From: a virus
Direction: 5' to 3' (one strand)
IMG/VR virus record: IMGVR_UViG_3300029554_000001
Length of the DNA stretch: 64,000 nt
Shown here: piece by piece, positions 7,622-45,005 of the stretch
Position numbering within the stretch: position 1 is the stretch's first letter
Layout: the number at the start of each line of letters is the position of its first letter
Notes under the pieces: model-generated
Database searches by the model: none
What the model saw: the letters and a program-made list of their open reading frames with translations, nothing else
What the model was told of the DNA's origin: nothing
Program-made: the position numbers and the translations under genes

Positions 7622-8587
7622 ATGGAACATACGAATTTTATGATGATGATTGGAGTTGTTGCAAGTGGTAAATCCACTCTTGCTCAAAATCTCAAAAATA
7701 TGCTGACTAAAATGGGTCAGCCTACAATGATTGTTTCATCGGATGAAATTCGTGAAACTGTTTTTGGAGATGTAAACGACCAGACTCATAATGACGAGGT
7801 TTTTAAGGAAGTTCGTCGCCGTATTAACAATTGCATTGATAAAATGAATGTTATTGTTGATGCAACTAATATTAATGTTAAATCTCGTAAGAGCTTGTTG
7901 GATATTGTTCGCAATAAGGAGAATGTTACTAAAGTAGCTTATGTTATGACTACTCCCGTTGCTGTTTGTAAAAGACAGAATAAAGCGAGAACTCGTACAG
8001 TTCCCGAAGAAGTTATTGACAGACAGATTGGCAAGTTTGAAATTCCTTTTTATGAAGAAGGTTTTGATACAATTAATTTAATTGGTTGGAATTTTAATCA
8101 GTTTGAAGTAATTGTCCCTCAGTCTAATTGGACTACTGATGATGATTATATTATGAGTTTGATGAAGGGCTTTGACCAGAAAACTTGTCATCATAAGTAC
8201 ACTTTAGATGAACATTGTAGAATTTGTGCCGAAGAAGTTGCTAAAAGAACTGATGATAAGATTCTTTATAGAGCTGCACAAATTCATGACTTAGGCAAGT
8301 TAACTACTGGACAGCCCAAGGAAGATGGTTCTGGAGATTATAGATATTATAGTCATCATAATGTAGGAACGTATGACCTTTTAGCAAATCTTGATTGTAT
8401 TGGATTTACTAACATGGACGATATCTTAAAATGTCTGTTTTATGTTAATTTTCATATGCTTCCATTCTTTCTTGAAACTGAAAAGTCTAAATCTAAATGG
8501 GAAAAGATTATGGGAAAAGAAAACCTTGATAAGCTTTTTTTGTTTAACGAATGCGATAAAATTGCAAGTGGGACTTCTGAAAAATAA
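7622..8587 (+). CDS. Polynucleotide kinase-like P-loop domain fused to an HD phosphohydrolase (RNA end-healing enzyme candidate)
   Basis: N-terminal GVVASGKST P-loop, SSDEIRE and DATN (Pnk/AAA_33-like). C-terminal HHKYTLDEHC...QIHDLGK...YYSHHNVG (HD motif). Sits directly upstream of the RNA ligase. Confidence 0.75.
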   Translation: MEHTNFMMMIGVVASGKSTLAQNLKNMLTKMGQPTMIVSSDEIRETVFGDVNDQTHNDEVFKEVRRRINNCIDKMNVIVDATNINVKSRKSLLDIVRNKENVTKVAYVMTTPVAVCKRQNKARTRTVPEEVIDRQIGKFEIPFYEEGFDTINLIGWNFNQFEVIVPQSNWTTDDDYIMSLMKGFDQKTCHHKYTLDEHCRICAEEVAKRTDDKILYRAAQIHDLGKLTTGQPKEDGSGDYRYYSHHNVGTYDLLANLDCIGFTNMDDILKCLFYVNFHMLPFFLETEKSKSKWEKIMGKENLDKLFLFNECDKIASGTSEK

Positions 8588-8622: not shown

Positions 8623-9981
8623 ATGAATTTTCATTTTAAGAAAGAGTTTCTTTGGCATCCTCTTTATGAATATGTTATGACTGTTAAAAGAAAGTATATT
8701 CAATCTTATACTCTCCTTAACAACGAACCTTGTCCTGAAAATTACAATTTTAATGATTGGCTCGACAGAATTTTTGAGGCGTGGGAGAATATTACTCCTA
8801 AACTTAATGAAAAGTTGAGTAAGATTTTTGACCCTCTTCAGATTACTTGTTATGACCATTATGTACTTTTTAAGTATAAAGGTTTTATTGAATTGTCTGA
8901 TGATTATGATTTAAATTCTTTTTTTGAATTATATGATGGTCTTTATAGGGAATGTCGTTCTTGTGTCTTTGATTTAAAGAATGACGAAATTGCTTTGGCT
9001 TCTTTGGCAAAGTTTAAGAATTATGGCGAGGATGATGGTGATTGGTCTCCTAAAAAAATTAGGTCTAAATATCATTTTGCTCATGCAGTTTTTATTACTA
9101 ATAAACTTGATGGTTCTTATCAGCAATATAGATATATTGCAGAGGAAGACAGAATTTTAGGTTCTGGTTCTCAGGCATTAGACCCTGTAGAATCTTGGAG
9201 ACTTGCGGCGGGTTATAAACTTTTATCTGAGGGACAAAAAGAATTAATTAGGGATTACCCTGATTACACTTTTATTTTTGAATATATTTCTCCAAAAAAT
9301 CCCATTGTTGTTAAGTATGATGAATCTCAAGAAGGATTGTATTTACTTGCGGCAAGGGATGTTAAGGATGGCAAGGAAGTTTCTTTTGATATTCTTAGTG
9401 ACATGGCTGAGGAATATGATTCTAAAATGACTCAATGGTATTATAATGCTACTTTGTTTAGTGTTTTAGCCGATACCGATAATTATCTTTCTTCTGAAAA
9501 AGAAGGTTGGGTAGTTGATATGGTTGATGGATATAAAAATCATTTTAGATGCAAAATTAAAACATCAGATTATGTCTTGATACATAAAGCATTATCTAAA
9601 AATATATCTCCTAACGCAGTTATTAATGCTATTCATGAAGATAGATTTGATGACTTTTTAGCAAAGTGTCCTGAAGCGTATAGAGAATTAATTATGCAGT
9701 ATTATAATACTGTTCATGAATATCTTAATCTTTATAAAGAGCTTATTGATAAAATTTTAATTAAAGGAAATGCAGAATGTGTAGATTTTTGGAATGATAA
9801 AAAAGAAGCAATGCTTTGGATGGATAAACTTCCCAAAGTGTTAAAGGGCAGAACAAAGACCAAATATCTTGGACAGGAAAATGATTTCTTGTTAAAGAGA
9901 CAGTTTTGCTATAAATATTCTGAAATTACAAAAGCCCTACACAATTTAAAGCGTTTTAAAAATTCTATGGTGGAAGGGTAA
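8623..9981 (+). CDS. RNA ligase, T4 Rnl1-like family
   Basis: Nucleotidyltransferase motifs: I NKLDGS, III FIFEYISPKNPIVVKY, IV EGWVVDM, V RCKIKTSDY. Confidence 0.8.
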   Translation: MNFHFKKEFLWHPLYEYVMTVKRKYIQSYTLLNNEPCPENYNFNDWLDRIFEAWENITPKLNEKLSKIFDPLQITCYDHYVLFKYKGFIELSDDYDLNSFFELYDGLYRECRSCVFDLKNDEIALASLAKFKNYGEDDGDWSPKKIRSKYHFAHAVFITNKLDGSYQQYRYIAEEDRILGSGSQALDPVESWRLAAGYKLLSEGQKELIRDYPDYTFIFEYISPKNPIVVKYDESQEGLYLLAARDVKDGKEVSFDILSDMAEEYDSKMTQWYYNATLFSVLADTDNYLSSEKEGWVVDMVDGYKNHFRCKIKTSDYVLIHKALSKNISPNAVINAIHEDRFDDFLAKCPEAYRELIMQYYNTVHEYLNLYKELIDKILIKGNAECVDFWNDKKEAMLWMDKLPKVLKGRTKTKYLGQENDFLLKRQFCYKYSEITKALHNLKRFKNSMVEG

Positions 9982-33456: not shown

Positions 33457-33469
33457 GAAAGGAAAAGAT

Positions 33470-33791: not shown

Positions 33792-34079
33792 TTGGAACTT
33801 TCTAAGAATCCTTCAATTAGATTCCTAACAGTTGTAAATGGTAAGGCTTGGTGTGATAATGATTCCGAAACTAAAAAGTTTAAGTTGACTAATACACCTC
33901 CTGAGCCTTTAAGAAAAGCTGTAGATGTTATTGCAGAAGATTTGGGAATTGATTTTCCTATGAGTTCTGCTAATTATGTTGCTAAAGTATACAAAGATTT
34001 TCTTGTAAAACATTTTGATTCATACCATCAGTATTATAAAAAGTTACAGGAAAATTTGCAAGAAACAGATAAAGAATAA
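33792..34079 (+). CDS. Hypothetical protein (TTG start proposed)
   Basis: The track GTG start at 33759 lies inside the promoter. TTG 33792 follows GTGAGGAA. Confidence 0.5.
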   Translation: MELSKNPSIRFLTVVNGKAWCDNDSETKKFKLTNTPPEPLRKAVDVIAEDLGIDFPMSSANYVAKVYKDFLVKHFDSYHQYYKKLQENLQETDKE

Positions 34080-34090
34080 AGGAGAAGGTT

Positions 34091-34564: not shown

Positions 34565-34566
34565 TT

Positions 34567-35040: not shown

Positions 35041-35197
35041 ATATTAATTAAGATAGATACTCCATTGGTTAAGTCTACGTTTGTCTGGTTAAGCTCATTA
35101 CTTTACTGGTATCTTAGTAGGAAACCTATCAGGCTAGCATGAGGTCTCTACGGAGCGTGGGGTTTGATACCATTCATGCGTGAGTGGTATCATATAT

Positions 35198-35273
35198 GCA
35201 GGATTAGTGTTAGCGGTTAGCACGACGGTCTTCCAAACCGTAAGGGCGAGTTCGAATCTCGTATCTTGCTCCA
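35198..35273 (+). tRNA. tRNA-Gly (anticodon TCC)
   Basis: GCAGGAT/ATCTTGC, ACGGT-CTTCCAA-ACCGT, GCGAG-TTCGAAT-CTCGT, TCCA. Confidence 0.9.
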
Positions 35274-35295
35274 TTAAATTTTATTTAATAAACAC

Positions 35296-35324
35296 TTGAC
35301 AAAGCGTTTGTTAGATGTTATAAT
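35296..35324 (+). promoter_or_regulatory. sigma70-like promoter
   Basis: TTGACA, 17 nt spacer, TATAAT. Confidence 0.65.
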
Positions 35325-35351
35325 TCAAAATGTAAAAAGGAAGTACGAAAA

Positions 35352-35798
35352 ATGACTGATATTACCCCTATCGTAGTTGCTGTAATTGGTTTGTGCTCTT
35401 TGATTTTTACAATCGTTCTTATTCCTTATCTTAAGAAGAAGGGTAAGTTGGACGATGTTAATCATGCTCTTACTCAAGCAGAACTTATTCATAAGTATGC
35501 TTTGATTGCAGTTAAGGCTGTTGAGCAGATGTTCCCTCGGGAAATTGAAAAGCGTTTACAGGAAGCAACAAAGTATTTTAATCGGCAGATGGAAGCTCTT
35601 GGTATTACTCTTGATGCAGATGAAGTTCGTAAGGCTATTGAAGCCGCTGTTTATGAGGTGAATCGTGAACTTCACGATGAAAAGTTGAAGGAGAGCCAGC
35701 TTCAAAATACCAATCCTGTTCCTTCGAATGACAAGATTGACAACACTGGTAATGTTATCCCTGATGAAGATACTGTAACTGAAGAAGCAGTAGGCTAA
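35352..35798 (+). CDS. N-terminally anchored membrane protein (LL-H holin-like)
   Basis: A single N-terminal TM (ITPIVVAVIGLCSLIFTIVLIPYL) followed by a charged helical tail. Functional call is weak. Confidence 0.6.
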   Translation: MTDITPIVVAVIGLCSLIFTIVLIPYLKKKGKLDDVNHALTQAELIHKYALIAVKAVEQMFPREIEKRLQEATKYFNRQMEALGITLDADEVRKAIEAAVYEVNRELHDEKLKESQLQNTNPVPSNDKIDNTGNVIPDEDTVTEEAVG

Positions 35799-35953
35799 GA
35801 TAATTTTCCTTTCTTATCTTAATAAATGTGTTGTTGAGACGCAATTACTCAGCGTCTATAAATAAGTTAAGTAACGTGAGGTTTGTTGGTAAAATACGTA
35901 AGTCCTTTCAGGAATGAAAAAAACCAATATTATTAAAATATAAGGAGGCTCTT

Positions 35954-36691
35954 ATGAAACATACTGTTATGGATTAGATTACAGATAAAGAATTTGAACA
36001 AATAGTTAAAAATTCTTATTCTTATCGAGAAGTAGCTGAAAAATGTGGGTATTGTTGTATAAGTGGAGCTTCTTCTAATATTGTGAAAAAGAGAATTTAG
36101 AAATTAAATTTAGATGTTTTTCATTTTAAAAAATCGCTTCATGTTTATCGACCAGATGATGAAATTTTTGTTGAGGATTCAAAAGTAGGGCAGACAGTTT
36201 TAAGAAAACGTTTTTTAGCCTTGAATGTAGTTGAATATAAATGTTCAATATGTGGATAGGAACCATTTTGGAATGGAAAGCCTTTATCGTTAACATTAGA
36301 CCATATAAATGGTAAAAACCATGATAACAGGTTTGACAATTTAAGGTGGGTTTGTCCTAATTGTGATAGATAGCTTCCCACTTTTGGACGGCGTAATGCT
36401 ATTCACGAAGCAAAATATAATTATTGTGTTGATTGTGGAATTGTTATTACTTTTAATGCAACAAGATGTAAAAAATGTGCAGATAAAGTTAAAGCAGAAA
36501 AACAAAAAAATATCAACAAACCAAACAGAGAAGAATTGAAAAAATTAATTAGAGAAAAGAATTTTTTAACTTTAGGAAAAGAGTTTAATGTCTCTGATAA
36601 TACTATTAGAAATTGGTGCGAAAGTTATAATCTTCCAAAAAAAACAAGAGAAATAAGATTAATAAAAGACCAAGATTGGGAATTTTTGTAA
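35954..36691 (+). CDS. HNH homing endonuclease (4 in-frame TAG)
   Basis: LDHINGKNHDNRFDNLRWVCPNCD (HNH), Zn ribbons, and a C-terminal HTH-like NTIRNWC. TAGs at 35975, 36098, 36257 and 36371; codon-by-codon check runs to TAA 36689. Confidence 0.8.
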
Positions 36692-36697
36692 TTAGAT

Positions 36698-36775
36698 GAG
36701 AGTATAGTTCAACTGGTTAGAATGCCGTCTTTACACGTCGGAGGCTTACAGGTTCGAGTCCTGTTACTCTCACCA
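36698..36775 (+). tRNA. tRNA-Val (anticodon TAC)
   Basis: GAGAGTA/TACTCTC, loop TTTACAC, ACAGG-TTCGAGT-CCTGT, ACCA. Confidence 0.85.
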
Positions 36776-36797
36776 TCAGACTTAAATTTAAACAAAA

Positions 36798-36921
36798 GTT
36801 GACACTCACAGCAAATTTATTTTATGTTTTTGGAATAACGTCGTGTAAGGTTCGACTCCTTATTAACAAATCCCTTGAGCAAGGAATAGTTAACCGTGGA
36901 TGGCTAGAAAAAAGTGTCAAG
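36798..36921 (+). ncRNA. ACAGCAA-stem module A (T-arm plus capped-hairpin payload)
   Basis: 5' G-TTGACACT-C-ACAGCAA ... AGTGTCAA-G 3' (8 bp, compensated variant of TAGAC/GTCTA). Payload is the T-arm TAAGG-TTCGACT-CCTTA (36846-36862) then the capped helix TTAAC...GTTAA. Confidence 0.7.
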
Positions 36922-36934
36922 ATTGCTCACTTAT

Positions 36935-37025
36935 GGAGTAGTAAGCCTAATTGGTAAGGCACCAGTTTGCTAAATTGGTAGTAGCTTGAAAGAGCGTACT
37001 GGTTCGAGTCCAGTCTACTTCGCCA
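36935..37025 (+). tRNA. tRNA-Ser (anticodon GCT), class II
   Basis: GGAGTAG/CTACTTC, CCAGT-TTGCTAA-ATTGG, long variable arm, ACTGG-TTCGAGT-CCAGT, GCCA. Confidence 0.85.
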
Positions 37026-37146
37026 CAGAATTTATTATAGCTGCTCGTAGTAAATTCGTAGTATTAGAAGCAGTAAAGGTACGAGTATGGTATCCGGCAC
37101 AGGAGTGGTCGTTAAGGGCGAGATAAAGCTGAACTCCTTTTTATAT

Positions 37147-37265
37147 CCCCATTAGTGTAATGGAGCATTCTCGTTAACTGACGTTGAGTAAACACTAAGG
37201 TAGCTCCTTAGTGATAACAGACACATCGGGAGAGGAAGTTGGTTCGAATCCAATTATGGGGTCCA
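37147..37265 (+). tRNA. tRNA-like gene with a 53-nt insertion in the anticodon loop (anticodon unresolved)
   Basis: Acceptor CCCCATT/TATGGGG (one mismatch), anticodon stem TCTCG (37169-73)/CGGGA (37227-31), T-arm GTTGG-TTCGAAT-CCAAT, TCCA. The insert contains an 8-bp hairpin CACTAAGG/CCTTAGTG. Confidence 0.55.
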
Positions 37266-37400
37266 GTAACCACGATACCGCCTTGAAAAAGGTCGTGGAG
37301 GTTCGCCTAACAGATGGAGTATCGCTTAATGTTAGGATGTGTATATGGCGCACCTAAGTTCAGACCGTTCAGAACCTACAACCATATTAGCGGTGACAGC

Positions 37401-37501
37401 TTGGAGAGACAGCAAATATGCGGCAACTGGTGTAATAATAAAAGTAGCCATGGACAATACTTTTATTATGTTTGGAGTTCGATTCTTCGATGCCGCTCCA
37501 A
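37401..37501 (+). ncRNA. ACAGCAA-led atypical tRNA-like RNA (module variant B)
   Basis: TTGGAG-AG-ACAGCAA-ATAT, then acceptor GCGGCAA/ATGCCGC, a 12-bp hairpin ATAATAAAAGTA/TACTTTTATTAT (loop GCCATGGACAA), T-arm TGGAG-TTCGATT-CTTCG, and T-CCA. The leader TTGGAG pairs with CTCCAA, overlapping the CCA. Confidence 0.5.
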
Positions 37502-37860
37502 AAGACAGAATGGTTAGATATTTCTTGATGTCTTCAAAAAACAAGAAATCCGTAAGGTCTGTACGAAACATTCCTTGGAATACAGTTTAGCTGGTTACAA
37601 TGTATTCGACACTGAACCGCCCTCCAAGTCTGATGGACTGGTAACAATAGAAAGACCGTTGCTTTGCTTAACTGGGTACGTTAAACCCTTATGCAATGAG
37701 CAAAACTGATAATGAAAATGACCAAGATAGTTGAGTGTAAGCCCCTTATAAGGAATAGCCTCTCCTCAGCCAAACCGAGGACAGATAAGTGAAAAGCTGG
37801 TCTGTCAGTAGTTATCAGTTTTTGTTCCTTATATATTTAATAAAATAAAAGGGTGTTTTT
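37502..37860 (+). ncRNA. ORF-free structured region (unknown RNA)
   Basis: GC-richer than the coding DNA. Long-range pairing AACTGATAA (about 37697)/TTATCAGTT (about 37812) and several local hairpins. Track ORFs here lack RBSs. Confidence 0.3.
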
Positions 37861-38181
37861 ATGGATTACATTGATAAGCAGTTTGCTAAACGTGGATATA
37901 AATTAGTACGTCAAAATGAATATGGCGCTTATTATGAAAGAAAAGATAATAAGTTTAATTATACAAGTGAGCTTGATATTATAGCCAAAGCAAATGGTAA
38001 GCATCTTGTTCAGTGTTATGATGCCCAAGTAGTTTATGGTCATCCTGAAAAGGATTCTAACAACTATCGTGTTATGAATGAAGTTGATGGAATTGATGCT
38101 TCTCTTTCTTTTTGGATTTGGTTAAAGTTTCATCAGCTTAAAAGAAAGTATAAATGGGATAAGGTGAAGAAACATGATTGA
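37861..38181 (+). CDS. Hypothetical protein
   Basis: 106-aa ORF after AAAAGGGTG. Confidence 0.6.
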   Translation: MDYIDKQFAKRGYKLVRQNEYGAYYERKDNKFNYTSELDIIAKANGKHLVQCYDAQVVYGHPEKDSNNYRVMNEVDGIDASLSFWIWLKFHQLKRKYKWDKVKKHD

Positions 38182-38446
38182 GACATATATTAAGAAGCCT
38201 GTTGCTGTTCAAGCAATTATTTGGACCGGCGATAATGAGGATGAAATTACAAGCTTTGTTGGTGCTCATTGTTGTGTTACGACAGAGCATACTATGAATG
38301 GCGTTAAGAAGAATCTTATTATGTATACTCTCGAAGGTTATCACTGTGCCTCTGTTGGCGATTATATTGTCAAAGGTATTAAGGGAGAATTTTATCCTGT
38401 TAAGCCTGATATTATGGAATTAACTTATGTTAAGGTGACTGAGTAA
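38174..38446 (+). CDS. Hypothetical protein
   Basis: Overlaps the upstream stop. Confidence 0.6.
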   Translation: MIETYIKKPVAVQAIIWTGDNEDEITSFVGAHCCVTTEHTMNGVKKNLIMYTLEGYHCASVGDYIVKGIKGEFYPVKPDIMELTYVKVTE

Positions 38447-38826
38447 TGGATACTTCTTTGTTTGAAATTGTTGGTCATTATTCTATTTGGACTGGTGAAA
38501 TTACTAAATTCCGAGTTGATGATATTCTAAGAGATAAAGAATTTAATTATTGGTATAAGATAGATTCTGAAACTATTGAATATCCTTGGGAAGTTCGTAT
38601 TTTAGATGCTACTCAAGTTTGGACTAATGCTGACTGTTATCAAGATAGTACATCAGGTAAATGGATTTATAGATGCATTCCTTATGACGGTTTAATCTTT
38701 ACCCTTGAAGCTAATTCTATGACAGAATTGGTAGACCTTATTAGAGATTTTGTTACTCCTCCTGAAGACATGGAAACTAAACTTGTTGCAAGTTCTAATT
38801 ATGATTGTTTTACTCAAAAGTTCTAA
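38446..38826 (+). CDS. Hypothetical protein
   Basis: TAATG coupling. Confidence 0.6.
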   Translation: MDTSLFEIVGHYSIWTGEITKFRVDDILRDKEFNYWYKIDSETIEYPWEVRILDATQVWTNADCYQDSTSGKWIYRCIPYDGLIFTLEANSMTELVDLIRDFVTPPEDMETKLVASSNYDCFTQKF

Positions 38827-38931
38827 TAAAGACTTGACAAAGATTTAAAAGTGTGGTAAGATAAATACATCTTAAGAGAAGAGAAAAACAAAAAACTTCT
38901 CAAAAAGACAAAAATAAATTTTAATAAGTGG

Positions 38932-38960
38932 TTGACATCTTAAAGATGATATGCTATAAT
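38932..38960 (+). promoter_or_regulatory. sigma70-like promoter (extended -10) driving an RNA cluster
   Basis: TTGACA, 17 nt spacer, TGcTATAAT. Confidence 0.65.
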
Positions 38961-38992
38961 AAGTGCATAAATAAAACCTCCTGAATAATAAA

Positions 38993-39109
38993 GTAGACTC
39001 TTACAGCAAATTTTCTAAAGGATAACACAATTGTCTTGAAAACAATCATTAGCGAGTTCGATTCTCGTCAGAGGGCGCTCTGTGGTGAATAATACGCAAA
39101 AGAGTCTAG
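38993..39109 (+). ncRNA. ACAGCAA-stem module 1 (anticodon-arm mimic, T-arm and capped helix)
   Basis: G-TAGACTCT-T-ACAGCAA ... AGAGTCTA-G. Payload is ATTGT-CTTGAAA-ACAAT (39030-39046; same loop as tRNA-Ser-TGA), T-arm GCGAG-TTCGATT-CTCGT, and the capped helix CAGAG-GGCG-CTCTG. Confidence 0.7.
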
Positions 39110-39121
39110 GTTAATTAATTT

Positions 39122-39197
39122 GGTCGGTTAGTCAAGTGGGCTAAGACACTGGCCTTTCACGTCAGTAGCACGGGTTCGAACCCCGTACCGACTACCA
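39122..39197 (+). tRNA. tRNA-Glu (anticodon TTC)
   Basis: GGTCGGT/ACCGACT, CTGGC-CTTTCAC-GTCAG, ACGGG-TTCGAAC-CCCGT, ACCA. Confidence 0.85.
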
Positions 39198-39370
39198 TTA
39201 TTCAAATCAGAAATCCGTTCTTATGATAGTGTGAGTAAGTTTTATCGGAATTAAATGAGGGGAACTTAAATCTATCGAAGGGTTAAGAAATAATTGTTTG
39301 ACGAAAAGTTGTTTCTCCTTTCTCTCTATCTGAGATGAATAATTTCCTTTCTGTAAGATGATATTGTAAA

Positions 39371-39504
39371 GTAGAGACTAACAGCAATTTTAAAATTATG
39401 TTAAAAAACCAAGCTCCCATTCTTCGGTTCGAATCCGAACGTCTTCAGTTGAAGTATGTAGCCAAGTGGTTTAAGGCAGGAGCCCATAATAACAATGTCT
39501 CTAG
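39371..39504 (+). ncRNA. ACAGCAA-stem module 2 carrying a circularly permuted tRNA-Gln-like body
   Basis: G-TAGAGAC-TA-ACAGCAA ... GTCTCTA-G. Internal order: GCTCC, var CATTC, T-arm TTCGG-TTCGAAT-CCGAA, acceptor 3' CGTCTTC, cap AGTTG, acceptor 5' AAGTATG, TA, D-arm GCC-AAGTGGTTTAA-GGC, A, GGAGC. Confidence 0.7.
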
Positions 39505-39511
39505 TATTTAT

Positions 39512-39588
39512 GCCCGTGTAGCTCAGTTGGTAGAAGCATTTGCCTTTTAAGCAAAGGGTCGAGAGTTCGAGTCTCTCCACGAGCACCA
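39512..39588 (+). tRNA. tRNA-Lys (anticodon TTT)
   Basis: GCCCGTG/CACGAGC (C3.A70 mismatch), TTTGC-CTTTTAA-GCAAA, GAGAG-TTCGAGT-CTCTC, ACCA. Confidence 0.85.
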
Positions 39589-39604
39589 AAAGCATTAGTA
39601 CATT

Positions 39605-39669
39605 GTAGACGCTTACAGCAATTTTAATTGTACTTATCTGTTAAATAAGAATACACAAAAAGCGTCTAG
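39605..39669 (+). ncRNA. ACAGCAA-stem module 3 (65 nt; bare anticodon-stem-loop mimic, GUU loop)
   Basis: G-TAGACGCT-T-ACAGCAA ... AGCGTCTA-G. The apical hairpin CTTAT-CTGTTAA-ATAAG (39633-39649) has the same 7-nt loop as tRNA-Asn at 40971. Confidence 0.7.
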
Positions 39670-39696
39670 CCCCTTTCTAAAGGAGAACAATTAAAT

Positions 39697-39781
39697 GGGT
39701 GAGTAGTGAATCGGCAAACACGCTTGACTGTAAATCAAGTTCCTGACGGAGTAGAAGGGTCGGCACCTTCCTCACCCACCA
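39697..39781 (+). tRNA. tRNA-Tyr (anticodon GTA), class II, unusual T-loop
   Basis: GGGTGAG/CTCACCC, CTTGA-CTGTAAA-TCAAG, long variable arm, T-arm GAAGG-GTCGGCA-CCTTC (G replaces T54), ACCA. Confidence 0.8.
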
Positions 39782-39807
39782 ATTTAAAATTTAAAGGAGA
39801 AAATATT

Positions 39808-39978
39808 ATGGGTTTTATGGGAGAAATTTCAGAAAATATTGGTTGGAATGATTGTATTAATTATCTTCTAAAAAATGTTGATAAATTTCAATCAACTTTA
39901 GAAGGTGGAGCTTATGATTATTTTCCAAATGATGAAATTAAAGAAATTTTAAAGAATTTAATTAGACCGGAAATCTAA
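39808..39978 (+). CDS. Hypothetical small protein
   Basis: RBS AAAGGAG before ATG 39808. The upstream part of the track ORF overlaps tRNA-Tyr. Confidence 0.55.
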   Translation: MGFMGEISENIGWNDCINYLLKNVDKFQSTLEGGAYDYFPNDEIKEILKNLIRPEI

Positions 39979-40000
39979 TAAAATTTTTGTTTTAAAACTC

Positions 40001-40029
40001 TTGACAAAATGAAAATTTTATGCTATAGT
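40001..40029 (+). promoter_or_regulatory. sigma70-like promoter (extended -10)
   Basis: TTGACA, 17 nt spacer, TGcTATAGT. Confidence 0.65.
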
Positions 40030-40106
40030 AAAAATATGATAAAGATACAAATTTATTTGTAAGCTAATTGTTCATTTTTTATTGTTCATAAAAGCATTCC
40101 TTTCAA

Positions 40107-40237
40107 GTAGACTCTAACAGCAACTTTACAATCACAAATGCTAAGGACCTGTTTGTTGGAGGTTCGAATCCTTCACTCCCGACCATCGGGAGTTAGCTCA
40201 ACGGATAGAGCAACAGATTTTGTAAAAATGAGTCTAG
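40107..40237 (+). ncRNA. ACAGCAA-stem module 4 carrying a circularly permuted tRNA with encoded ACCA
   Basis: G-TAGACTC-TA-ACAGCAA ... GAGTCTA-G with a second helix TTTACAA/TTGTAAA. Internal order: CCTGT, TTGTT, T-arm GGAGG-TTCGAAT-CCTTC, acceptor 3' ACTCCCG, A-CCA-T, acceptor 5' CGGGAGT (perfect 7 bp), TA, D-arm GCTC-AACGGATA-GAGC, A, ACAGA. Confidence 0.75.
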
Positions 40238-40292
40238 TTAATAAATTGACGCTCCTATTTTCTTCAAATAGGCAAATATAAATTCCTTTCAA

Positions 40293-40410
40293 GTAGACAC
40301 GTACAGCAAAATTACTTGATGCTTTAATGTGGAAAATTAACGATAAGGTTCGACTCCTTAATCTTCTTTAGAAGATGCGTGGTTGCTGGAAATCAAAAAA
40401 ACGTGTCTAG
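40293..40410 (+). ncRNA. ACAGCAA-stem module 5 (anticodon-arm mimic GGA, T-arm and capped helix)
   Basis: G-TAGACACG-T-ACAGCAA ... CGTGTCTA-G. Payload is TTAAT-GTGGAAA-ATTAA (40324-40340), T-arm TAAGG-TTCGACT-CCTTA (identical to module A), and ATCTTCT-TT-AGAAGAT. Confidence 0.7.
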
Positions 40411-40419
40411 GTTAAATAT

Positions 40420-40504
40420 GGCTGAGTGGCGAAATTGGCATACGCAGTTGCTTCAAGTACAACCCTCGAAAGAGATGTGGGTTCAAGTCCCACCTCAGCT
40501 ACCA
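40420..40504 (+). tRNA. tRNA-Leu (anticodon CAA), class II
   Basis: GGCTGAG/CTCAGCT, loop TTCAAGT, long variable arm, GTGGG-TTCAAGT-CCCAC, ACCA. Confidence 0.8.
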
Positions 40505-40970
40505 TAATTGCATCTCAATTGGCAGATAGCGAATGCAATTTATATTAAACTGCCCGATTCAGCAAGGATGGCTAAAGCCTTGTCGGTGCTCCATATATTT
40601 GAACTCATTTTTAGTCCGTTAAGCTAAAACCCTCTCTCCCGACCGAAGAAGGTGTAGAATACAAGTTAATGGTATTCGAATGGGAAGAACACCAACTATA
40701 AGATAAGGCAACTTACCAAGGTGCAAATATGGCAAGAAAACCTTTTGGACGAAATTGGTGCCGTGCTTACGGGGATAGATAGTTGCGCATCTATCTAAAC
40801 AAAAACTCTGATTACTGCAACTAAATCGGGGTAGGTATTGAGGTTATGGGTCATGTAACCTTAAAACACAATAAGCCGAGCATACTGCTTATTGCTCCTA
40901 ACAGGTGGTGCTGAGGATGAACAACAAAAGCCAAGTTATAGAGTTCTTGTAAAAAACTCTATTGTTATTT
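40505..40970 (+). ncRNA. ORF-free ~465-nt structured region (unknown RNA)
   Basis: No ORF in any frame in the track. GC-richer than flanks. Local helices include ATTGCAT/ATGCAAT and GATAGAT/ATCTATC. Confidence 0.3.
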
Positions 40971-41047
40971 GGAAGTATAGCTCAGTTGGCTAGAGCGCTT
41001 GGCTGTTAACCAAGATGTCACAAGTTCAAGTCTTGTTATTTCCGCCA
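40971..41047 (+). tRNA. tRNA-Asn (anticodon GTT)
   Basis: GGAAGTA/TATTTCC, CTTGG-CTGTTAA-CCAAG, ACAAG-TTCAAGT-CTTGT, GCCA. Confidence 0.9.
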
Positions 41048-41048
41048 A

Positions 41049-41125
41049 AAGTGGAGGGTGTAGGTTCGAGTCCTGCCCTGCTCGTGGGAAACCCTTGCAG
41101 GAAGCTGCTAGGTACAGCGCCACTT
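41049..41125 (+). ncRNA. Circularly permuted tRNA-like domain (no ACAGCAA stem)
   Basis: Closing stem AAGTGG/CCACTT. Order: var AGGGT, T-arm GTAGG-TTCGAGT-CCTGC, capped helix CCTGC...GCAGG, AA, D-arm-like GCTG-CTAGGTA-CAGC, G. Starts 1 nt after the CCA of tRNA-Asn. Confidence 0.5.
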
Positions 41126-41181
41126 AGAATTTCTTTCACCTTATTACGCGAAATATGGGATTGAGATGTTGCTTTAGTCGG

Positions 41182-41207
41182 GTTCTTTTACAGCAGAAAA
41201 TAAGAAC
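41182..41207 (+). ncRNA. Minimal hairpin bearing a TTACAGCAG loop (possible degenerate module)
   Basis: GTTCTT-TTACAGCAGAAAAT-AAGAAC. Confidence 0.3.
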
Positions 41208-41399
41208 GCACCTGTTTAATTGGGTTTTTTAGTTCAGTAAAAACAAGAAAAACCTCGGTTGTTTAGAAATTTTCTTCTGATATTGAATGAAAACATTTAG
41301 AGAATTCTCTCATTGCAATGCCGAAAGGTAGCAAGATATGAAAACAGCTAATTGGTGAACATATTTGCTACCGAGTAGGGATAAGAGAGAATTAAATAT

Positions 41400-41475
41400 G
41401 CTTTGGTAGCTCAATTGGTAGAGCAGTGGACTGAAAATCCACGTGTAGCCAGTTCGATTCTGGCCTAAAGCACCA
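41400..41475 (+). tRNA. tRNA-Phe (anticodon GAA)
   Basis: GCTTTGG/CTAAAGC, GTGGA-CTGAAAA-TCCAC, GCCAG-TTCGATT-CTGGC, ACCA. Confidence 0.9.
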
Positions 41476-41476
41476 T

Positions 41477-41560
41477 TGCTGGCGAGTGAAACGGATATAT
41501 AAATCACGCTTGGCTCATACCCAAGTAATAGTGGGTTCGACTCCCATGCTTCAGCAACCA
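41477..41560 (+). tRNA. tRNA with CAT anticodon (Met or Ile2), irregular acceptor/T junction and oversized D-loop
   Basis: CTTGG-CTCATAC-CCAAG is a perfect anticodon arm. T-arm GTGGG-TTCGACT-CCCAT. Acceptor TGCTGGC/TTCAGCA has 2 extra nt (GC) after the T-stem. ACCA. Confidence 0.55.
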
Positions 41561-41584
41561 AAAAATAAAAGGAAGTAAATTCTA

Positions 41585-41893
41585 ATGACTATTAATTTTA
41601 AGATTTACATTTATTAGACAGCAAATAATAAAAAGTTTGTTTATAGATGTCCTCATTGTAATAAAGGGATAATGCAAGTAGCAGAAACTAAAACTGCTAA
41701 AGATGAAACTAATTTTTTATCTTGGAATTATACTTGCCCAGTTTGTAAGAAGCAGATTGTCTCTATTGAAAAAGACGGTTGTTCTTCTTTTAAAAGTGTG
41801 TTCCCTCCAATGACTCAAATTAGTGATAAAGAATTTACTGATATTAAAAAGGATGTAGGAGAGAAGGGTATTTATCTATTCTCTGAAACATAA
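41585..41893 (+). CDS. Zn-ribbon protein (1 in-frame TAG)
   Basis: ATG 41585 and TAG 41615 are in frame with the track ORF at 41672. CPHC...CPVC. Confidence 0.55.
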
Positions 41894-41896
41894 AAT

Positions 41897-41992
41897 GCTA
41901 GCGTACAGAAATTGGTTATAACTGCCTAGACTTGAAATCTTGTGTGTTGACGTTGAATCAGCCTGTGGGTTCGAATCCTACCGCTAGCGCCA
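41897..41992 (+). tRNA. tRNA-Ser (anticodon TGA), class II
   Basis: GCTAGCG/CGCTAGC, CTAGA-CTTGAAA-TCTTG, long variable arm, GTGGG-TTCGAAT-CCTAC, GCCA. Confidence 0.8.
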
Positions 41993-42010
41993 TTAAACGG
42001 AGTCTTTAAT

Positions 42011-42217
42011 ATGAAAATTTGGAATGGAAATGATTTTGAATATCTTGGTTATTTTGTAAAAAATAATAAGAAAGCCAAATATTTTGAGGTTTTTGATAAG
42101 AATGGCAATCTTCTTTTCAAACAAACTAATTGGGGTCATGCTTGTGTGACTTCAGTTAAACATAAGATTGAAGACTTTCATAAAAAATATGGACAGGAGA
42201 TTAAAAATGAACAATAA
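42011..42217 (+). CDS. Hypothetical small protein
   Basis: 68-aa ORF. Confidence 0.55.
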   Translation: MKIWNGNDFEYLGYFVKNNKKAKYFEVFDKNGNLLFKQTNWGHACVTSVKHKIEDFHKKYGQEIKNEQ

Positions 42218-42722
42218 TAATTCAATCGAAATCGAACGTAAGTTTTTAATCTCTGGTTTTCCTAAAGTCGATTTTGATGAAGTCGGAATTGTTAAAACTA
42301 TCTATATTAATATCAAATATAATTCTGATGGAAAAATTTTACAGGAAATTCGTATAAGACGTTGGTTTGAAAGTGGCAAAGGTTATCGTCCAGATGCTCT
42401 TACTTTTAAATCTGGTGGTACTTTAACTCGTACTGAAATTGAAACAAATCTTACAGATAATTCTTTGTTTGACTGTTTTAATGAACTTGGTTATAATCCT
42501 ATTGTAAAAGATTATAGAGGTCTTTACAATAATGGCTATTTAATTGAATTCAATCTTGTAGATGGCGGTACTGATACTGCTTTCTATTATGCCGAAGTTG
42601 AATTTGATTCTGAGGAAGAAGCTAACAGTTATGTTTGGCCTTTTCCTGAAGTATTTATTGAGGAAGTTACTAATAAGCCTGAATATAAGATGGCAAATTA
42701 TTGGAAACGTACTCGTGGATAA
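42207..42722 (+). CDS. CYTH-domain (triphosphate tunnel metalloenzyme) protein
   Basis: N-terminal IEIERKFLI (ExExK signature). RBS GGACAGGAG before ATG 42207. Confidence 0.7.
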   Translation: MNNNNSIEIERKFLISGFPKVDFDEVGIVKTIYINIKYNSDGKILQEIRIRRWFESGKGYRPDALTFKSGGTLTRTEIETNLTDNSLFDCFNELGYNPIVKDYRGLYNNGYLIEFNLVDGGTDTAFYYAEVEFDSEEEANSYVWPFPEVFIEEVTNKPEYKMANYWKRTRG

Positions 42723-42746
42723 GGACTATTGTTTAGTCCTTTATTT

Positions 42747-42822
42747 GCTGGATTAGCTCAGTTGGTAGAGCGATTGATTTGTAATCAATAGGTCGGGGGT
42801 TCGAATCCGTCATCCAGCTCCA
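42747..42822 (+). tRNA. tRNA-Thr (anticodon TGT)
   Basis: GCTGGAT/ATCCAGC, ATTGA-TTTGTAA-TCAAT, T-loop TTCGAAT, TCCA. Confidence 0.85.
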
Positions 42823-42857
42823 CAAATTTTCTTGTCAAATAAAAGAGGATTTTTATT

Positions 42858-43031
42858 ATGGATGAATTTTTAATCTCAGAAGAGAATATGAAAATCTTTG
42901 AGCAGATTAAAGCTTTAAAGAAAGATAAATATACCATGAAAGATGTTAATACCATTTGCGAATTGCTTGGGGTTAAATTGTTTTGGTATCAAAAGTTTGT
43001 TCTTCTTCATCTTCTTAATGATAAAAATTAA
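42858..43031 (+). CDS. Possible 57-aa protein
   Basis: RBS AAAAGAGGA before ATG 42858. Below the track length cutoff. Confidence 0.4.
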   Translation: MDEFLISEENMKIFEQIKALKKDKYTMKDVNTICELLGVKLFWYQKFVLLHLLNDKN

Positions 43032-43042
43032 ATGAGGTACAT

Positions 43043-43324
43043 ATGCCGATAAGAAACGGAAACAATGATATTTATAGTGACATTTTCTTCCAATATTTGA
43101 ATGAGAATGAAGAGAAGATGATTGATGAAGTGGCTTCTAAGCTTGAAAAACACAATCCAGTTCTTTATCCTAAAGATGTTTCAGTAGCAATTTCGAAATC
43201 CATTTATAGTGATTATAAGAAATATCTTTATGAACATGGATATACTTTTAAGAAAGAATACTTAGAAGAATACTTAGAAGAATACTTTAAAAATTTAACA
43301 GAAGAAATTCTTAAAAACTCTTGA
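43043..43324 (+). CDS. Hypothetical protein
   Basis: 93-aa ORF containing the internal repeat EEYLEEYLEEY. Confidence 0.55.
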   Translation: MPIRNGNNDIYSDIFFQYLNENEEKMIDEVASKLEKHNPVLYPKDVSVAISKSIYSDYKKYLYEHGYTFKKEYLEEYLEEYFKNLTEEILKNS

Positions 43325-43404
43325 CAAAAGAAATTGAATGTGATATACTAAATTATAGTTTCAAATCTATTATCCAGTTTTATTAAATTTTAAGTGTGAT
43401 TAAA

Positions 43405-43638
43405 ATGAGTAAACAGATTAAATTGACTCCTTTACAAAAATTAGAGTTTATCAAAATGTGGTTGGGAAAGGATTTCTTTTTTCCTAAGCAACGTGAAGAA
43501 AAACTTTTAGATTTGTTAAAGGATGAAAAAGAAATCAAATGCTCAAAAGACTATAATTCTTACTTAGCTACTTTAAAATTTCTTGAACAAGTTCTTACAG
43601 ATGCTCAAACATGGGATGAATTTGTTGAGGATGAATAA
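43405..43638 (+). CDS. Hypothetical protein
   Basis: ATG 43405 lies downstream of TTGACA..TATACT. Confidence 0.55.
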   Translation: MSKQIKLTPLQKLEFIKMWLGKDFFFPKQREEKLLDLLKDEKEIKCSKDYNSYLATLKFLEQVLTDAQTWDEFVEDE

Positions 43639-43658
43639 AAAGAAATTTTAAAAAGTAC

Positions 43659-43687
43659 TTGACAAGATGAAGAGTATATGTTATACT
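43659..43687 (+). promoter_or_regulatory. sigma70-like promoter driving the distal RNA cluster
   Basis: TTGACA, 17 nt spacer, TATACT. Confidence 0.65.
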
Positions 43688-43719
43688 TAAGATGTGGTTG
43701 AGAGATACAACCTAAAAAT

Positions 43720-43815
43720 GCGGGAGTTAAGGAGAGGCCACCTTACCACATTCCGAGTGTGGGTTAAATCCGTCAAGAACGGTGCTCGCGGGTTCGAATC
43801 CCGTCTCCCGCTCCA
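43720..43815 (+). tRNA. Class II (long variable arm) tRNA with apparent CCG anticodon
   Basis: GCGGGAG/CTCCCGC, D-arm AAGG..CCTT, CCACA-TTCCGAG-TGTGG, about 25-nt variable arm with CCGT/ACGG stem, GCGGG-TTCGAAT-CCCGT, TCCA. Confidence 0.6.
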
Positions 43816-43942
43816 TTCCTTAGTAGTTTAAAAGACGATAAACAAATTAAAATACCCTTCAGTCGGAAAGCCTCTAATGAGTATAGAATGGCACTCAAGT
43901 AGGGAGTTCTGGATGGGCGAATCGGAACCACCAGCTAAGGAA
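43816..43942 (+). ncRNA. Cloverleaf-like element closed by an 8-bp stem
   Basis: TTCCTTAG/CTAAGGAA closing stem, then TA and D-arm-like GTTT..AAAC. Shares the 13-mer AGTAGTTTAAAAG (43822-43834) with the insert of tRNA-Ile (44638-44650). Confidence 0.35.
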
Positions 43943-43950
43943 AAATATAT

Positions 43951-44110
43951 AGGGGTGTAGCCAAGCGGTAAGGCAAGGGACTTTCAAGAATTAATTCAAG
44001 TAGAATCCAGTGGATTAGTTTAAAGACTGTTTCGACGGTATATTGGTTCAAGTCCAATATTCTTGACCAGACTCCCTGACTCGAAGGTTCAAATCCTTCC
44101 ATCCCTGCCA
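43951..44110 (+). tRNA. tRNA-Gln (anticodon TTG) interrupted by a 85-nt tRNA-like insert
   Basis: AGGGGTG/CATCCCT, Gln-type D-arm GCC-AAGCGGTAA-GGC, anticodon stem AGGGA (43976-80)/TCCCT (44073-77), GAAGG-TTCAAAT-CCTTC, G73, CCA. Loop halves CTTT (43981-84) and GAC (44070-72) sum to CTTTGAC. Confidence 0.75.
43985..44069 (+). tRNA. Nested tRNA-like gene inside the tRNA-Gln anticodon loop
   Basis: Perfect acceptor CAAGAAT/ATTCTTG, TA, D-arm ATTC-AAGTA-GAAT, stem CAGT/ACTG with a 14-nt loop, T-arm ATTGG-TTCAAGT-CCAAT, then A-CCA. Confidence 0.6.
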
Positions 44111-44139
44111 TAAGTAACAATTCAAATTATCGTTTACGT

Positions 44140-44284
44140 GTAGACGCTTACAGCAAACAATAATAAAATCAAATTCTAGTAAAAAAGATATAAATTAATA
44201 TTTAAAAAAGATTTTGGGTATTGTTCCTTGCTAATTAGTTTATGATGCTTTCATGATTCTCCTTTGTTAGTATTATGCGTCTAG
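44140..44284 (+). ncRNA. ACAGCAA-stem module 6 (AT-rich ~120-nt payload)
   Basis: G-TAGACGC-TT-ACAGCAA ... GCGTCTA-G. Confidence 0.6.
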
Positions 44285-44291
44285 TTTATAA

Positions 44292-44358
44292 GTGCCGTAC
44301 CAAGGTTGGGGTCGCTCGACGGAGGGCTTAAGAAGGGGTTCGAATCCCCCACGGTGCA
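44292..44358 (+). ncRNA. 67-nt tRNA-like element (acceptor and T-arm only)
   Basis: GTGCCGT/ACGGTGC (2 G.U pairs), T-arm (A)GGGG-TTCGAAT-CCCC(C). No convincing anticodon arm. Confidence 0.35.
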
Positions 44359-44414
44359 AGATTGAATTGTTTGGAGTACTACAAACAAGATGGTAAGTTA
44401 TTGATGATTTAAAA

Positions 44415-44479
44415 GTAAACCCTTACAGCAATTTAACTACTTAATTTTTGCTTGAAAAAAGATTATGGATAGGGTTTAG
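44415..44479 (+). ncRNA. ACAGCAA-stem module 7 (65 nt)
   Basis: G-TAAACCCT-T-ACAGCAA ... AGGGTTTA-G (G>A in the 5' strand compensated by C>T in the 3' strand). U/A-stem hairpin containing the CTTGAAA string (44451-57). Confidence 0.65.
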
Positions 44480-44495
44480 ATTTGTAATGTTAAAA

Positions 44496-44585
44496 GTAGA
44501 CACTAACAGCAATTTTAAAAAGTATTCTATATATATATTAAAATGCCAAAATTTAATTGTACATATTAACTTTTAAAGTGTCTAG
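44496..44585 (+). ncRNA. ACAGCAA-stem module 8 (AT-rich payload)
   Basis: G-TAGACACT-A-ACAGCAA ... AGTGTCTA-G. Confidence 0.6.
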
Positions 44586-44595
44586 GATTTTATAT

Positions 44596-44731
44596 AGGAC
44601 GGTAGCTTAATCGGTTTAAGCCTCCGACTTATCTGAGAGTAGTTTAAAAGTAAAACTGTTAATGTAAGTGCAAGACTTGCCTTTCAGACCAAATCGGAAG
44701 ATTGTGAGTTCGAGTCTCACCCGTCCCACCA
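44596..44731 (+). tRNA. tRNA-Ile (anticodon TAT) interrupted by a 59-nt minihelix insert
   Basis: AGGACGG/CCGTCCC (A1.C72 mismatch), D-arm GCTT..AAGC, anticodon stem TCCGA (44623-27)/TCGGA (44694-98), GTGAG-TTCGAGT-CTCAC, ACCA. Loop halves CTTAT (44628-32) and AA (44692-93) sum to CTTATAA. Confidence 0.75.
44633..44691 (+). ncRNA. Nested acceptor-stem/D-arm minihelix ending in ACCA
   Basis: CTGAGAG/CTTTCAG (7 bp, one G.U), TA, GTTT-AAAAGTA-AAAC, short hairpin, then A-CCA. Confidence 0.55.
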
Positions 44732-44749
44732 TTTATAATTAAAAATAAA

Positions 44750-44819
44750 GTAGACTCTTACAGCGATTACTTAGAGACTTGTGATGTGGGATTACATATG
44801 TTTTGAAAAATGAGTCTAG
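44750..44819 (+). ncRNA. ACAGCAA-stem module 9 (loop variant ACAGCGA)
   Basis: G-TAGACTC-TT-ACAGCGA ... GAGTCTA-G with internal hairpin TGTGAT-GTGGG-ATTACA. Confidence 0.6.
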
Positions 44820-44828
44820 CTTTATTAA

Positions 44829-44905
44829 GCGCCTGTAGTCTAATTGGATAAAACCGCACTCTTCTAAAGTGTATCTTATGAGTTCGAATCTCGTCAGGCG
44901 TGCCA
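44829..44905 (+). tRNA. tRNA-Arg (anticodon TCT)
   Basis: GCGCCTG/CAGGCGT, GCACT-CTTCTAA-AGTGT, ATGAG-TTCGAAT-CTCGT, GCCA. Confidence 0.85.
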
Positions 44906-44934
44906 CTTAAGGTCATTTGACTTTATTTAACATT

Positions 44935-45005
44935 GCGGCGTAGTATAATGGTCAATGCGCACGGCTCTAACCCGTGAAATGCTCGTTCGATTCGAAGTCG
45001 CCGCT
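44935..45005 (+). tRNA. Candidate amber-suppressor tRNA (anticodon CTA)
   Basis: Perfect anticodon arm CACGG-CTCTAAC-CCGTG (44960-44976). Acceptor GCGGCG/CGCCGC, TA, D-arm GTA-TAATGGTCAA-TGC. T-loop TTCGATT with an imperfect stem GCTCG/CGAAG. No encoded CCA. Confidence 0.6.

Follow-up and report, generated by a model that had tools for sequence, protein, structure and literature searches.

tRNA-like introns in the anticodon loops of large-phage tRNA genes and a possible protein-dependent route for their removal

Introduction

To our knowledge, all the tRNA introns established in bacteria and their viruses are self-splicing ribozymes, and protein-dependent tRNA splicing is regarded as archaeal and eukaryal. 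The locus described here lies in a stretch of 64,000 nucleotides (nt) of viral DNA (IMG/VR record IMGVR_UViG_3300029554_000001), the whole of which is referred to as the window. It is a tRNA-Gln(UUG) gene at positions 43951-44110, the anticodon loop of which is split between positions 35 and 36 by an 85-nt insert (43985-44069) that itself resembles a tRNA.

The nearest precedent is the group of "enigmatic" tRNA introns in the Lak megaphages. An intron of this group "may itself encode a tRNA", and intron-plus and intron-minus alleles occur (Devoto et al. 2019, PMC6784885). A survey published in 2026 makes the same point, that introns of this kind "could encode another tRNA" (PMC13037316). The original prediction for this locus held that nothing similar had been described, a claim that these two papers overturn. 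The Lak introns resemble the present insert in being non-group-I elements of large-phage anticodon loops with a tRNA-like module, plus and minus alleles and no Rfam classification (PMC6784885). They differ in that a hairpin leader of ~30 nt precedes the tRNA-like part and in that they end directly after the discriminator, with no CCA, whereas the present introns run from +1 to position 76 and include the CCA (our parse of Table S6 of PMC6784885). A 3' end directly after the discriminator coincides with the classical RNase Z site, a suggestive parallel in phages of Prevotella hosts. The accessible portions of PMC6784885 contain no mechanism, boundary rule or covariation analysis for the Lak introns, and a full-text literature search of incomplete coverage returned no proposal of a mechanism for such introns. 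New here, in comparison with the Lak precedent, are a precise boundary rule and a testable mechanism for introns that had been noted and left unexplained.

The insert of the tRNA-Gln gene is delimited by intron-less alleles

The outer gene has an acceptor stem of AGGGGTG (43951-57) and CATCCCT (44100-06), which includes the A1-U72 pair and one G-U pair, a D-arm of the form GCC-AAGCGGTAA-GGC and an anticodon stem of AGGGA (43976-80) and TCCCT (44073-77), the strands of which are 92 nt apart. G73 is at 44107 and the CCA is at 44108-10. The coordinates originally given for the outer gene and for the insert all match the sequence. The Rfam tRNA model aligns with 43951-44107 at 49 bits (gathering score 29) and places an 87-nt insertion in the anticodon loop.

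Related phages were sampled at 36 loci on 22 related IMG/VR phage contigs (~105-220 kilobases (kb)), which were retrieved via two flanking open reading frames (ORFs). The gene is uninterrupted in the sister contigs L002/L025, L006/L033 and L011/L030, in which the equivalent of bases 1-85 of the query abuts that of bases 171-261 and the missing bases are 43985-44069. These limits cannot be shifted because the flanks differ, with T followed by C at the 5' border and A followed by G at the 3' border. The product of splicing in silico is identical at 75 of 75 positions to the tRNA-Gln(UUG) gene at L002:11688. Thus, the intron-less allele identifies the outer gene as Gln rather than Glu and the insert as the segment from the first base of its stem of seven base pairs (bp) to A-CCA, in agreement with the original prediction. 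Excision of the insert leaves the 7-nt loop CUUUGAC in a 75-nt tRNA-Gln. The predicted exon junctions are GGGACUUUGACUCCC for this gene and CCGACUUAUAAUCGG for a tRNA-Ile gene described below. ARAGORN at default settings overlooked the tRNA-Gln gene. With introns allowed, it returned an 85-nt intron displaced by 1 nt and a Glu(UUC) tRNA, an assignment that was rejected because the intron-less Gln allele reads CTTTGAC.

The insert begins with an acceptor strand, CAAGAAT (43985-91), that pairs over 7 bp with ATTCTTG (44059-65). U8 and A9 (43992-93), a D-like arm (43994-44006), a central region (44007-41) holding the motif TAGTTTAAAGACTGTT that is common to the other insert of the window, and a T-arm, ATTGG-TTCAAGT-CCAAT (44042-58), lie between the two strands. 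The discriminator A73 (44066) and a CCA (44067-69) complete the insert. The insert alone scores 32.7 bits against the Rfam tRNA model, above the gathering score of 29, with the acceptor, D and T arms aligned. It has the tRNA hallmarks of a 7-bp acceptor, a discriminator, a CCA and a T-arm with G53-C61, U54, C56 and A58. However, the insert is not the complete tRNA-like gene that had been claimed. An anticodon arm with a 5-bp stem and a 7-nt loop was not found in it (the Rfam tRNA alignment skips the region), most of the related introns described below likewise have none, and the stem with a 14-nt loop noted earlier is not a feature of the family. ARAGORN does not call the inner element as a tRNA, either at default settings or with introns allowed. 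Judged by its sequence, the insert is a tRNA-like module, or tRNA mimic, and not a decoder.

A second tRNA gene of the window is interrupted in the same manner

A tRNA-Ile(UAU) gene (44596-44731), 500 nt downstream of the tRNA-Gln gene, is also interrupted. The Rfam tRNA model matches it at 49 bits with a 62-nt insertion. Its intron consists of the acceptor CTGAGAG and CTTTCAG, the D-like hairpin TAGTTTAAAAGTAAAAC and the T-arm GTAAG-TGCAAGA-CTTGC, followed by A-CCA. Removal of 44633-44691 leaves CUUAU joined to AA and gives a tRNA-Ile(UAU). In the orthologues of L001 and L003, UUAUAA is unbroken within the 3' exon. The ARAGORN call of "SeC"-UCA for 44596-44731 was rejected because TTATAA is contiguous in these two orthologues. 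The Gln and Ile inserts have in common the motif TAGTTTAAA(N)ACTGTT (two matches vs. none expected).

The tRNA-Ile(UAU) gene is interrupted in all the relatives, with no intact copy within the sampled loci. Comparison of eight distinct exon sets showed that 99.4% of the cells of the outer cloverleaf are paired and that 14 of the 21 pairs, in all four helices, carry compensatory changes.

The introns form a family with one boundary rule

About 36 distinct introns of 50-123 nt were found in Gln, Ile, Gly, Glu, Lys, Thr and Leu tRNAs of related phage contigs of 85-233 kb. All follow the same rule, in which the intron opens with the first base of a 7-bp stem that covaries and closes with N-C-C-N, while its position in the loop ranges from 32/33 to 36/37 (Table 1). 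In correctly registered genes, a single offset of the eight possible ones gives 7/7 pairs and a 4-nt tail, and the same offset restores a canonical 7-nt loop with an anticodon that fits the tRNA body (e.g. Gly UCC with U73). In this analysis, the stem finder placed a few genes in the wrong register, and these were recovered by allele comparison and parsing by hand. Intron-less alleles are identical to the predicted spliced products of the Thr gene (74/74) and, for two different introns, of the Gly gene (76/76).

A structure-first search, in which a 7-bp stem, a hairpin of 5 bp and 7 nt and a tail were excised and ARAGORN was required to find a tRNA with the junction in the anticodon loop, returned 94 instances of 34 distinct introns. 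Further large phage contigs (L070, L082 with three introns, L164 and L180) were represented among them. A first broad pattern scan of viral contigs had mostly matched ordinary tRNAs with a GUUU/AAAC D-stem, and the pattern was then tightened. No intron conforming to the rule was found in one genome per bacterial species, where only free-standing mini-tRNA-like elements were matched. Comparison of both interrupted genes with the GenBank phage collection (blastn) returned only exon or T-arm pieces of ordinary tRNAs and no cultured carrier.

The typical member consists of the acceptor, U8-R9, a 4-bp D-like hairpin (often UAGUUUAA..AAAAC), a short linker, the T-arm, the acceptor and NCCA. Longer members carry extra hairpins. 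In shape the introns imitate the upper half of a tRNA, in which the 7-bp acceptor stem stacks on the T-arm. The free-standing elements likewise combine a 7-bp stem with a UAGUUUAA..AAAAC hairpin that a short linker connects to a T-arm, and both the anticodon arm and the CCA are absent. They occur in metagenome-assembled genomes of Mycoplasmataceae (L186 720-760, L193 2568-2604 and L195 589-627) and of Clostridium (L190 and L194) and in the viral contigs L101, L147 and L181. The Mycoplasmataceae elements begin 2 nt past a 3' end, ...GGGTTCGACTCCCGTCATCTCCACCA, that resembles the 3' end of a transfer-messenger RNA or a tRNA. The free-standing elements may be RNase P processing signals.

Covariation and conservation resemble those of an RNase P substrate

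Pairing was analysed at fixed coordinates, with 9 nt taken from the start and 30 nt from the end of each intron, and hence the T-arm was not chosen for its pairing. The acceptor and the T-arm are paired in 264 of 264 cells, and 11 of the 12 pairs show compensatory changes, a result reached by none of 500 shuffles. G53-C61, U54, C56, A58, C74 and C75 are invariant across the 22-sequence alignment, and U8 is nearly so. With the tail left unconstrained, CC occupies positions 74-75 in 34 of the 36 distinct introns; the exceptions are single-base variants with the tails ACAA and TTCA (L014 6556-6622 and L003 2424-2492). The 1-72 pair is G-C or C-G and the base before the intron (-1) is U or C in all the introns. 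When ARAGORN was used to judge variation in the length of the tail, most altered lengths were tolerated; the offset analysis and the dinucleotide test were used instead.

A substrate of bacterial RNase P has a 12-bp stack of the acceptor and T stems, a T-loop, C74-C75 that pair with the P15 loop of the RNase P RNA, a strong 1-72 pair and a pyrimidine at -1. The introns likewise have the 12-bp stack, the T-loop, the 3' N-C-C, G or C at +1 and the pyrimidine at -1. It is the tRNA-like fold of the intron itself, and not the tRNA that it interrupts, that sets its limits.

The interrupted genes are probably functional and the introns mobile

The exons of the interrupted Gln, Gly and Thr genes are identical to intact alleles and show no decay. 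This, together with the compensatory changes of the tRNA-Ile, makes pseudogenes unlikely and indicates that the introns are removed at the RNA level; they are very probably spliced out by some route. Codon usage shows no clear demand for the interrupted tRNAs, with ATA accounting for 65 of the 760 Ile codons in the ORFs of the window.

The flanks around intron-plus and intron-minus alleles are 97-100% identical. Among orthologous tRNA-Ile genes, the intron differs and is placed at either 32/33 or 36/37, and the same D-like hairpin is found in the introns of different tRNAs. Target-site duplications are absent from the sequences of the family, and the introns contain no ORF. Movement by recombination between co-infecting phages or by ligase-mediated reverse insertion is speculation.

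The introns are neither group I nor bulge-helix-bulge introns

A search of Rfam at E <= 10 with 43600-44400 and with the insert alone returned only tRNA matches, with neither RF00028 nor any other ribozyme or intron family. The original prediction that the insert is not a group I intron is borne out, since RF00028 was detected elsewhere in the same window (1771-2023) and serves as a positive control; group I identity was excluded on these grounds. The family resembles group I introns in its anticodon-loop location and mobility. However, its members are 50-123 nt long (vs. ~200 nt or more), have no catalytic core and have a tRNA-like architecture. Group I introns end in a terminal G, whereas the last base here is mostly A, and G or T in a few.

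A bulge-helix-bulge (BHB) motif consists of two 3-nt bulges around a 4-bp helix. In the present introns, a 7-bp helix begins directly at the 5' site, and 4 nt separate its other end from the 3' site; a BHB intron was excluded.

The phage encodes an Rnl1-type ligase next to a kinase-like protein

The Rnl1-type RNA ligase that had been assigned to 8623-9981 is confirmed by its Pfam match, and a polynucleotide-kinase-like (Pnkp-like) gene adjoins it (Table 1). There are no Pfam matches over the C-terminal halves of the two proteins. Both genes are present in all the close relatives, Rnl1 at 93-100% identity. In L164, a Pnkp-like gene lies 3.5 kb from the intron-bearing tRNA. A scan of ~40 ORFs of the window with Pfam found no EndA/Sen splicing endonuclease domain. 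A Thg1-like protein, a nucleotidyltransferase and a metallophosphoesterase make up an RNA-repair set in the window.

A cluster of RNA-repair and NAD/ADP-ribose genes was also observed (14553-15368, 17420-17866, 25260-25988, 27025-28284, 29521-30354 and 57152-58930). It encodes a nucleotidyltransferase, NADAR, a Macro-like protein, a PARP with WGR, a Thg1-like 3'-5' polymerase and a DUF2828/vWA (Ro/TROVE-like) protein.

Table 1. Exons, introns and RNA-repair genes of the window, with the lengths and loop positions of introns in the wider family
Feature	Coordinates	Strand	Remarks
5' exon of tRNA-Gln(UUG)	43951..43984	+	acceptor 5' strand, D-arm, anticodon-stem 5' strand, C32 U33 U34 U35
tRNA-like intron, 85 nt	43985..44069	+	limits from intron-less alleles
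3' exon of tRNA-Gln(UUG)	44070..44110	+	G36 A37 C38, anticodon-stem 3' strand, variable loop, T-arm, acceptor 3' strand, G73, CCA
5' exon of tRNA-Ile(UAU)	44596..44632	+	ends in loop bases CUUAU
tRNA-like intron, 59 nt	44633..44691	+	1/8 offsets gives 7/7 pairs and 4-nt ACCA tail
3' exon of tRNA-Ile(UAU)	44692..44731	+	A37 A38 through CCA
Polynucleotide-kinase-like P-loop protein (Pnkp-like)	7622..8587	+	adjoins ligase; Pfam AAA_33, E = 6e-21
Rnl1-type ATP-dependent RNA ligase	8623..9981	+	Pfam RNA_lig_T4_1 (PF09511), 48.5 bits vs. cut-off 28.3
Family, Gln			introns of 63, 85, 120, 121 nt; loop 35/36
Family, Ile-UAU			introns of 57-59, 91 nt; loop 32/33 or 36/37
Family, Gly-UCC			introns of 58, 69 nt; loop 36/37
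Family, Glu-UUC			intron of 66 nt; loop 36/37
Family, Lys-UUU			introns of 50, 67, 123 nt; loop 34/35 or 35/36
Family, Thr-UGU			introns of 59, 87, 88 nt; loop 34/35
Family, Leu-UAA			introns of 67, 68 nt; loop 34/35

A possible splicing route and its alternatives

The locus may be a functional tRNA-Gln(UUG) gene with a mobile tRNA-shaped intron that would be excised by RNase P and a 3' endonuclease and sealed by Rnl1, a reading to which even chances are given. The precursor is modelled as two nested tRNA-like domains. Host RNase P would cut at intron +1 and leave a 3'-OH on the 5' exon. A tRNA 3'-end endonuclease (of the RNase Z/BN type, or a phage enzyme) would cut after position 76 and leave a 5'-phosphate on the 3' exon, which is the weakest step of the scheme; RNase Z/BN in some bacteria cleaves after an encoded CCA. 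The exon halves would remain base-paired as a tRNA nicked in the anticodon loop, the natural substrate of a T4-type Rnl1, and the 3'-OH and 5'-phosphate ends would require no healing. The phage Rnl1 would then seal the nick and produce the 75-nt tRNA-Gln with the CUUUGAC loop. Since the cut sites would be set by the intron and not by the exons, such introns could occupy any position of the anticodon loop. Schwer and colleagues reportedly found in 2004 that T4 Pnkp and Rnl1 are able to replace the yeast tRNA ligase in tRNA splicing.

The N-C-C-N rule, the variable loop positions, the conserved C74-C75, the G/C pair at 1-72 and the pyrimidine at -1 make the model of RNase P, 3' endonuclease and ligase more plausible. 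Several observations weigh against it. In hosts of the Bacillus type, CCA inhibits RNase Z and exonucleases trim the precursors with an encoded CCA; a precise 3' exon would result from neither route. Two members of the family have CA or UC at positions 74-75, and position 76 is usually A but several introns end in G or U. The co-occurrence of Rnl1 and introns does not discriminate, as every close relative has both. Of the ~40 scanned ORFs of the window, which represents 64 kb of a genome of ~215 kb, none resembled RNase P or RNase Z. The extra 5' hairpin leader of the Lak introns is not removable by RNase P alone, and a dedicated machinery may exist. Taken as a whole, the pathway of RNase P, 3' nuclease and Rnl1 is put at an even chance or slightly less.

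Such a machinery could be a dedicated endonuclease, encoded by the phage or the host, that recognises the tRNA-shaped intron and cuts both junctions to leave a 2',3'-cyclic phosphate and a 5'-OH, which the Pnkp-like protein would heal and Rnl1 would seal, with RNase P uninvolved. Heal-and-seal tRNA splicing is known from yeast and plants. The healing kinase gene adjoining the phage ligase, the RNA-repair set of the phage, the Lak leader and a cut after position 76 that is explained by no known enzyme are consistent with this route. However, the scanned ORFs contain no candidate for the endonuclease, the conserved features of the introns are exactly those of an RNase P substrate, and RNase P, essential in bacteria, is expected to cleave such a structure anyway. 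A dedicated endonuclease is considered unlikely, although it is a serious rival. A smaller probability is given to a functional role of the released inner RNA, e.g. as a decoy for host tRNA-targeting defences or tRNA-binding enzymes, for which the loop would serve as an expression site; this would be compatible with splicing. The hairpin sequence UAGUUUAA..AAAAC is kept across the introns of different tRNAs while their acceptor stems diverge, and similar free-standing elements without an anticodon arm occur elsewhere. Against such a role, the introns are dispensable, as shown by the intron-less alleles of close relatives, they vary widely in length (50 to 123 nt) and in their central parts, and the smallest one (50 nt) has no D-like hairpin.

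An unspliced selfish insertion that has turned the tRNA genes into pseudogenes or sources of tRNA halves appears improbable. Polymorphism of presence and absence is typical of mobile DNA, and with ATA not abundant a demand for tRNA-Ile(UAU) is not obvious. However, the interrupted exons are 100% identical to those of intact alleles, the always-interrupted tRNA-Ile has kept its cloverleaf through compensatory changes, removal of the introns always restores a perfect 7-nt loop and target-site duplications are absent. Least probable of all is a new class of RNA that splices or cleaves itself. The precedent of the established bacterial and phage tRNA introns, all of which are ribozymes (group I), speaks for it, whereas the Rfam search at E <= 10 gave no ribozyme or intron family, the smallest member is only 50 nt long, the sole invariant bases are those of the T-arm and the CC, there is no terminal G, and the genuine group I intron of the same genome was readily detected.

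Comparison with protein-dependent splicing and RNA repair

If the pathway of RNase P, 3' endonuclease and Rnl1 is correct, the introns would share with archaeal and eukaryal enzymatic splicing the protein-dependent removal of a short anticodon-loop intron, followed by exon ligation. They differ in having no bulge-helix-bulge, in that the fold of the intron, instead of the mature domain or a BHB, sets the sites, and in that the predicted ends are 3'-OH and 5'-phosphate. The T4 Pnkp/Rnl1 repair system is similar in the adjacency of an Rnl1-family ligase and a polynucleotide kinase and in the predicted substrate, a tRNA nicked in the anticodon loop. The T4 nick is damage by a host anticodon nuclease, whereas the proposed nick would be a programmed step of biogenesis at several loop positions. 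In plant mitochondrial t-elements, MALAT1 mascRNA and mitochondrial tRNA punctuation, a tRNA-like structure likewise recruits RNase P and a 3' tRNase at its borders, and the acceptor and T-arm are used with the anticodon arm dispensable. These elements define only the ends of transcripts, whereas the flanks of the present introns would be joined again to form a functional tRNA. The introns may represent a third kind of tRNA splicing, in which tRNA mimics are cut by the universal enzymes of tRNA end maturation and the exons are joined by a phage Rnl1; this generalization is tentative and judged somewhat less probable than not.

If so, the "enigmatic" introns of huge phages would find their explanation in a splicing route that is so far undemonstrated in bacteria, and the RNA-repair ligases would gain a constitutive role in tRNA biogenesis. 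This role could explain the retention of Rnl1 and Pnkp by many large phages without attack by a host nuclease. The same hypothesis would also explain why tRNA finders miss or mis-assign these genes, as ARAGORN does in overlooking both at default settings and, with introns allowed, in returning Glu and SeC instead of Gln and Ile. Ligase-mediated reverse insertion into cleaved tRNAs could carry the introns from one anticodon loop to another, and RNA engineering would gain a small, programmable module for excision (50-60 nt).

Other features of the window

The window belongs to an AT-rich (~32% GC) large phage with nearly all its genes on the + strand and a PolIII-alpha that is 44% identical to that of SPbeta-like Bacillus phages. 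PolIII-alpha is split into two ORFs (262-1353 and 2102-4642), between which lies the group I intron (RF00028, 46.8 bits, E = 1e-10, just below the gathering score of 50). Other tRNAs of the relatives have anticodon-loop inserts of 198-219 nt (L002 12564-12857, L004 11967-12271 and L036 8586-8878), in which Azoarcus-like group I core motifs were recognized by eye; Rfam gave no match at E <= 0.01 for the ~200-220-nt inserts of L004.

The tRNA array spans 31976-45005. It includes a conserved 119-nt tRNA-like RNA ending in UCCA (37147-37265), which is present in all the relatives and scores just 21 bits with the Rfam tRNA model. Its anticodon-arm site holds a non-tRNA-like insertion of ~45-57 nt with the hairpin CACTAAGG-TAGC-CCTTAGTG that does not follow the acceptor-to-NCCA rule, and it may be an intron of a different class or a non-decoding RNA. 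A tRNA with the anticodon CCG (43720-43815) has a 23-nt variable arm (type II shape) and U73, which is unusual for an arginine tRNA. An amber-suppressor-type tRNA with the anticodon CUA (44935-45005) was labelled Pyl by ARAGORN. In-frame TAG codons number zero in the 37 ORFs counted, and any recoding would concern genes outside that set. The motif GTAGACNNNWACAGC occurs in nine copies (vs. 0.17 expected) within 38993-40307 and 44140-44764, all on the + strand and only between tRNA genes, and could be a phage promoter or an RNA-processing signal.

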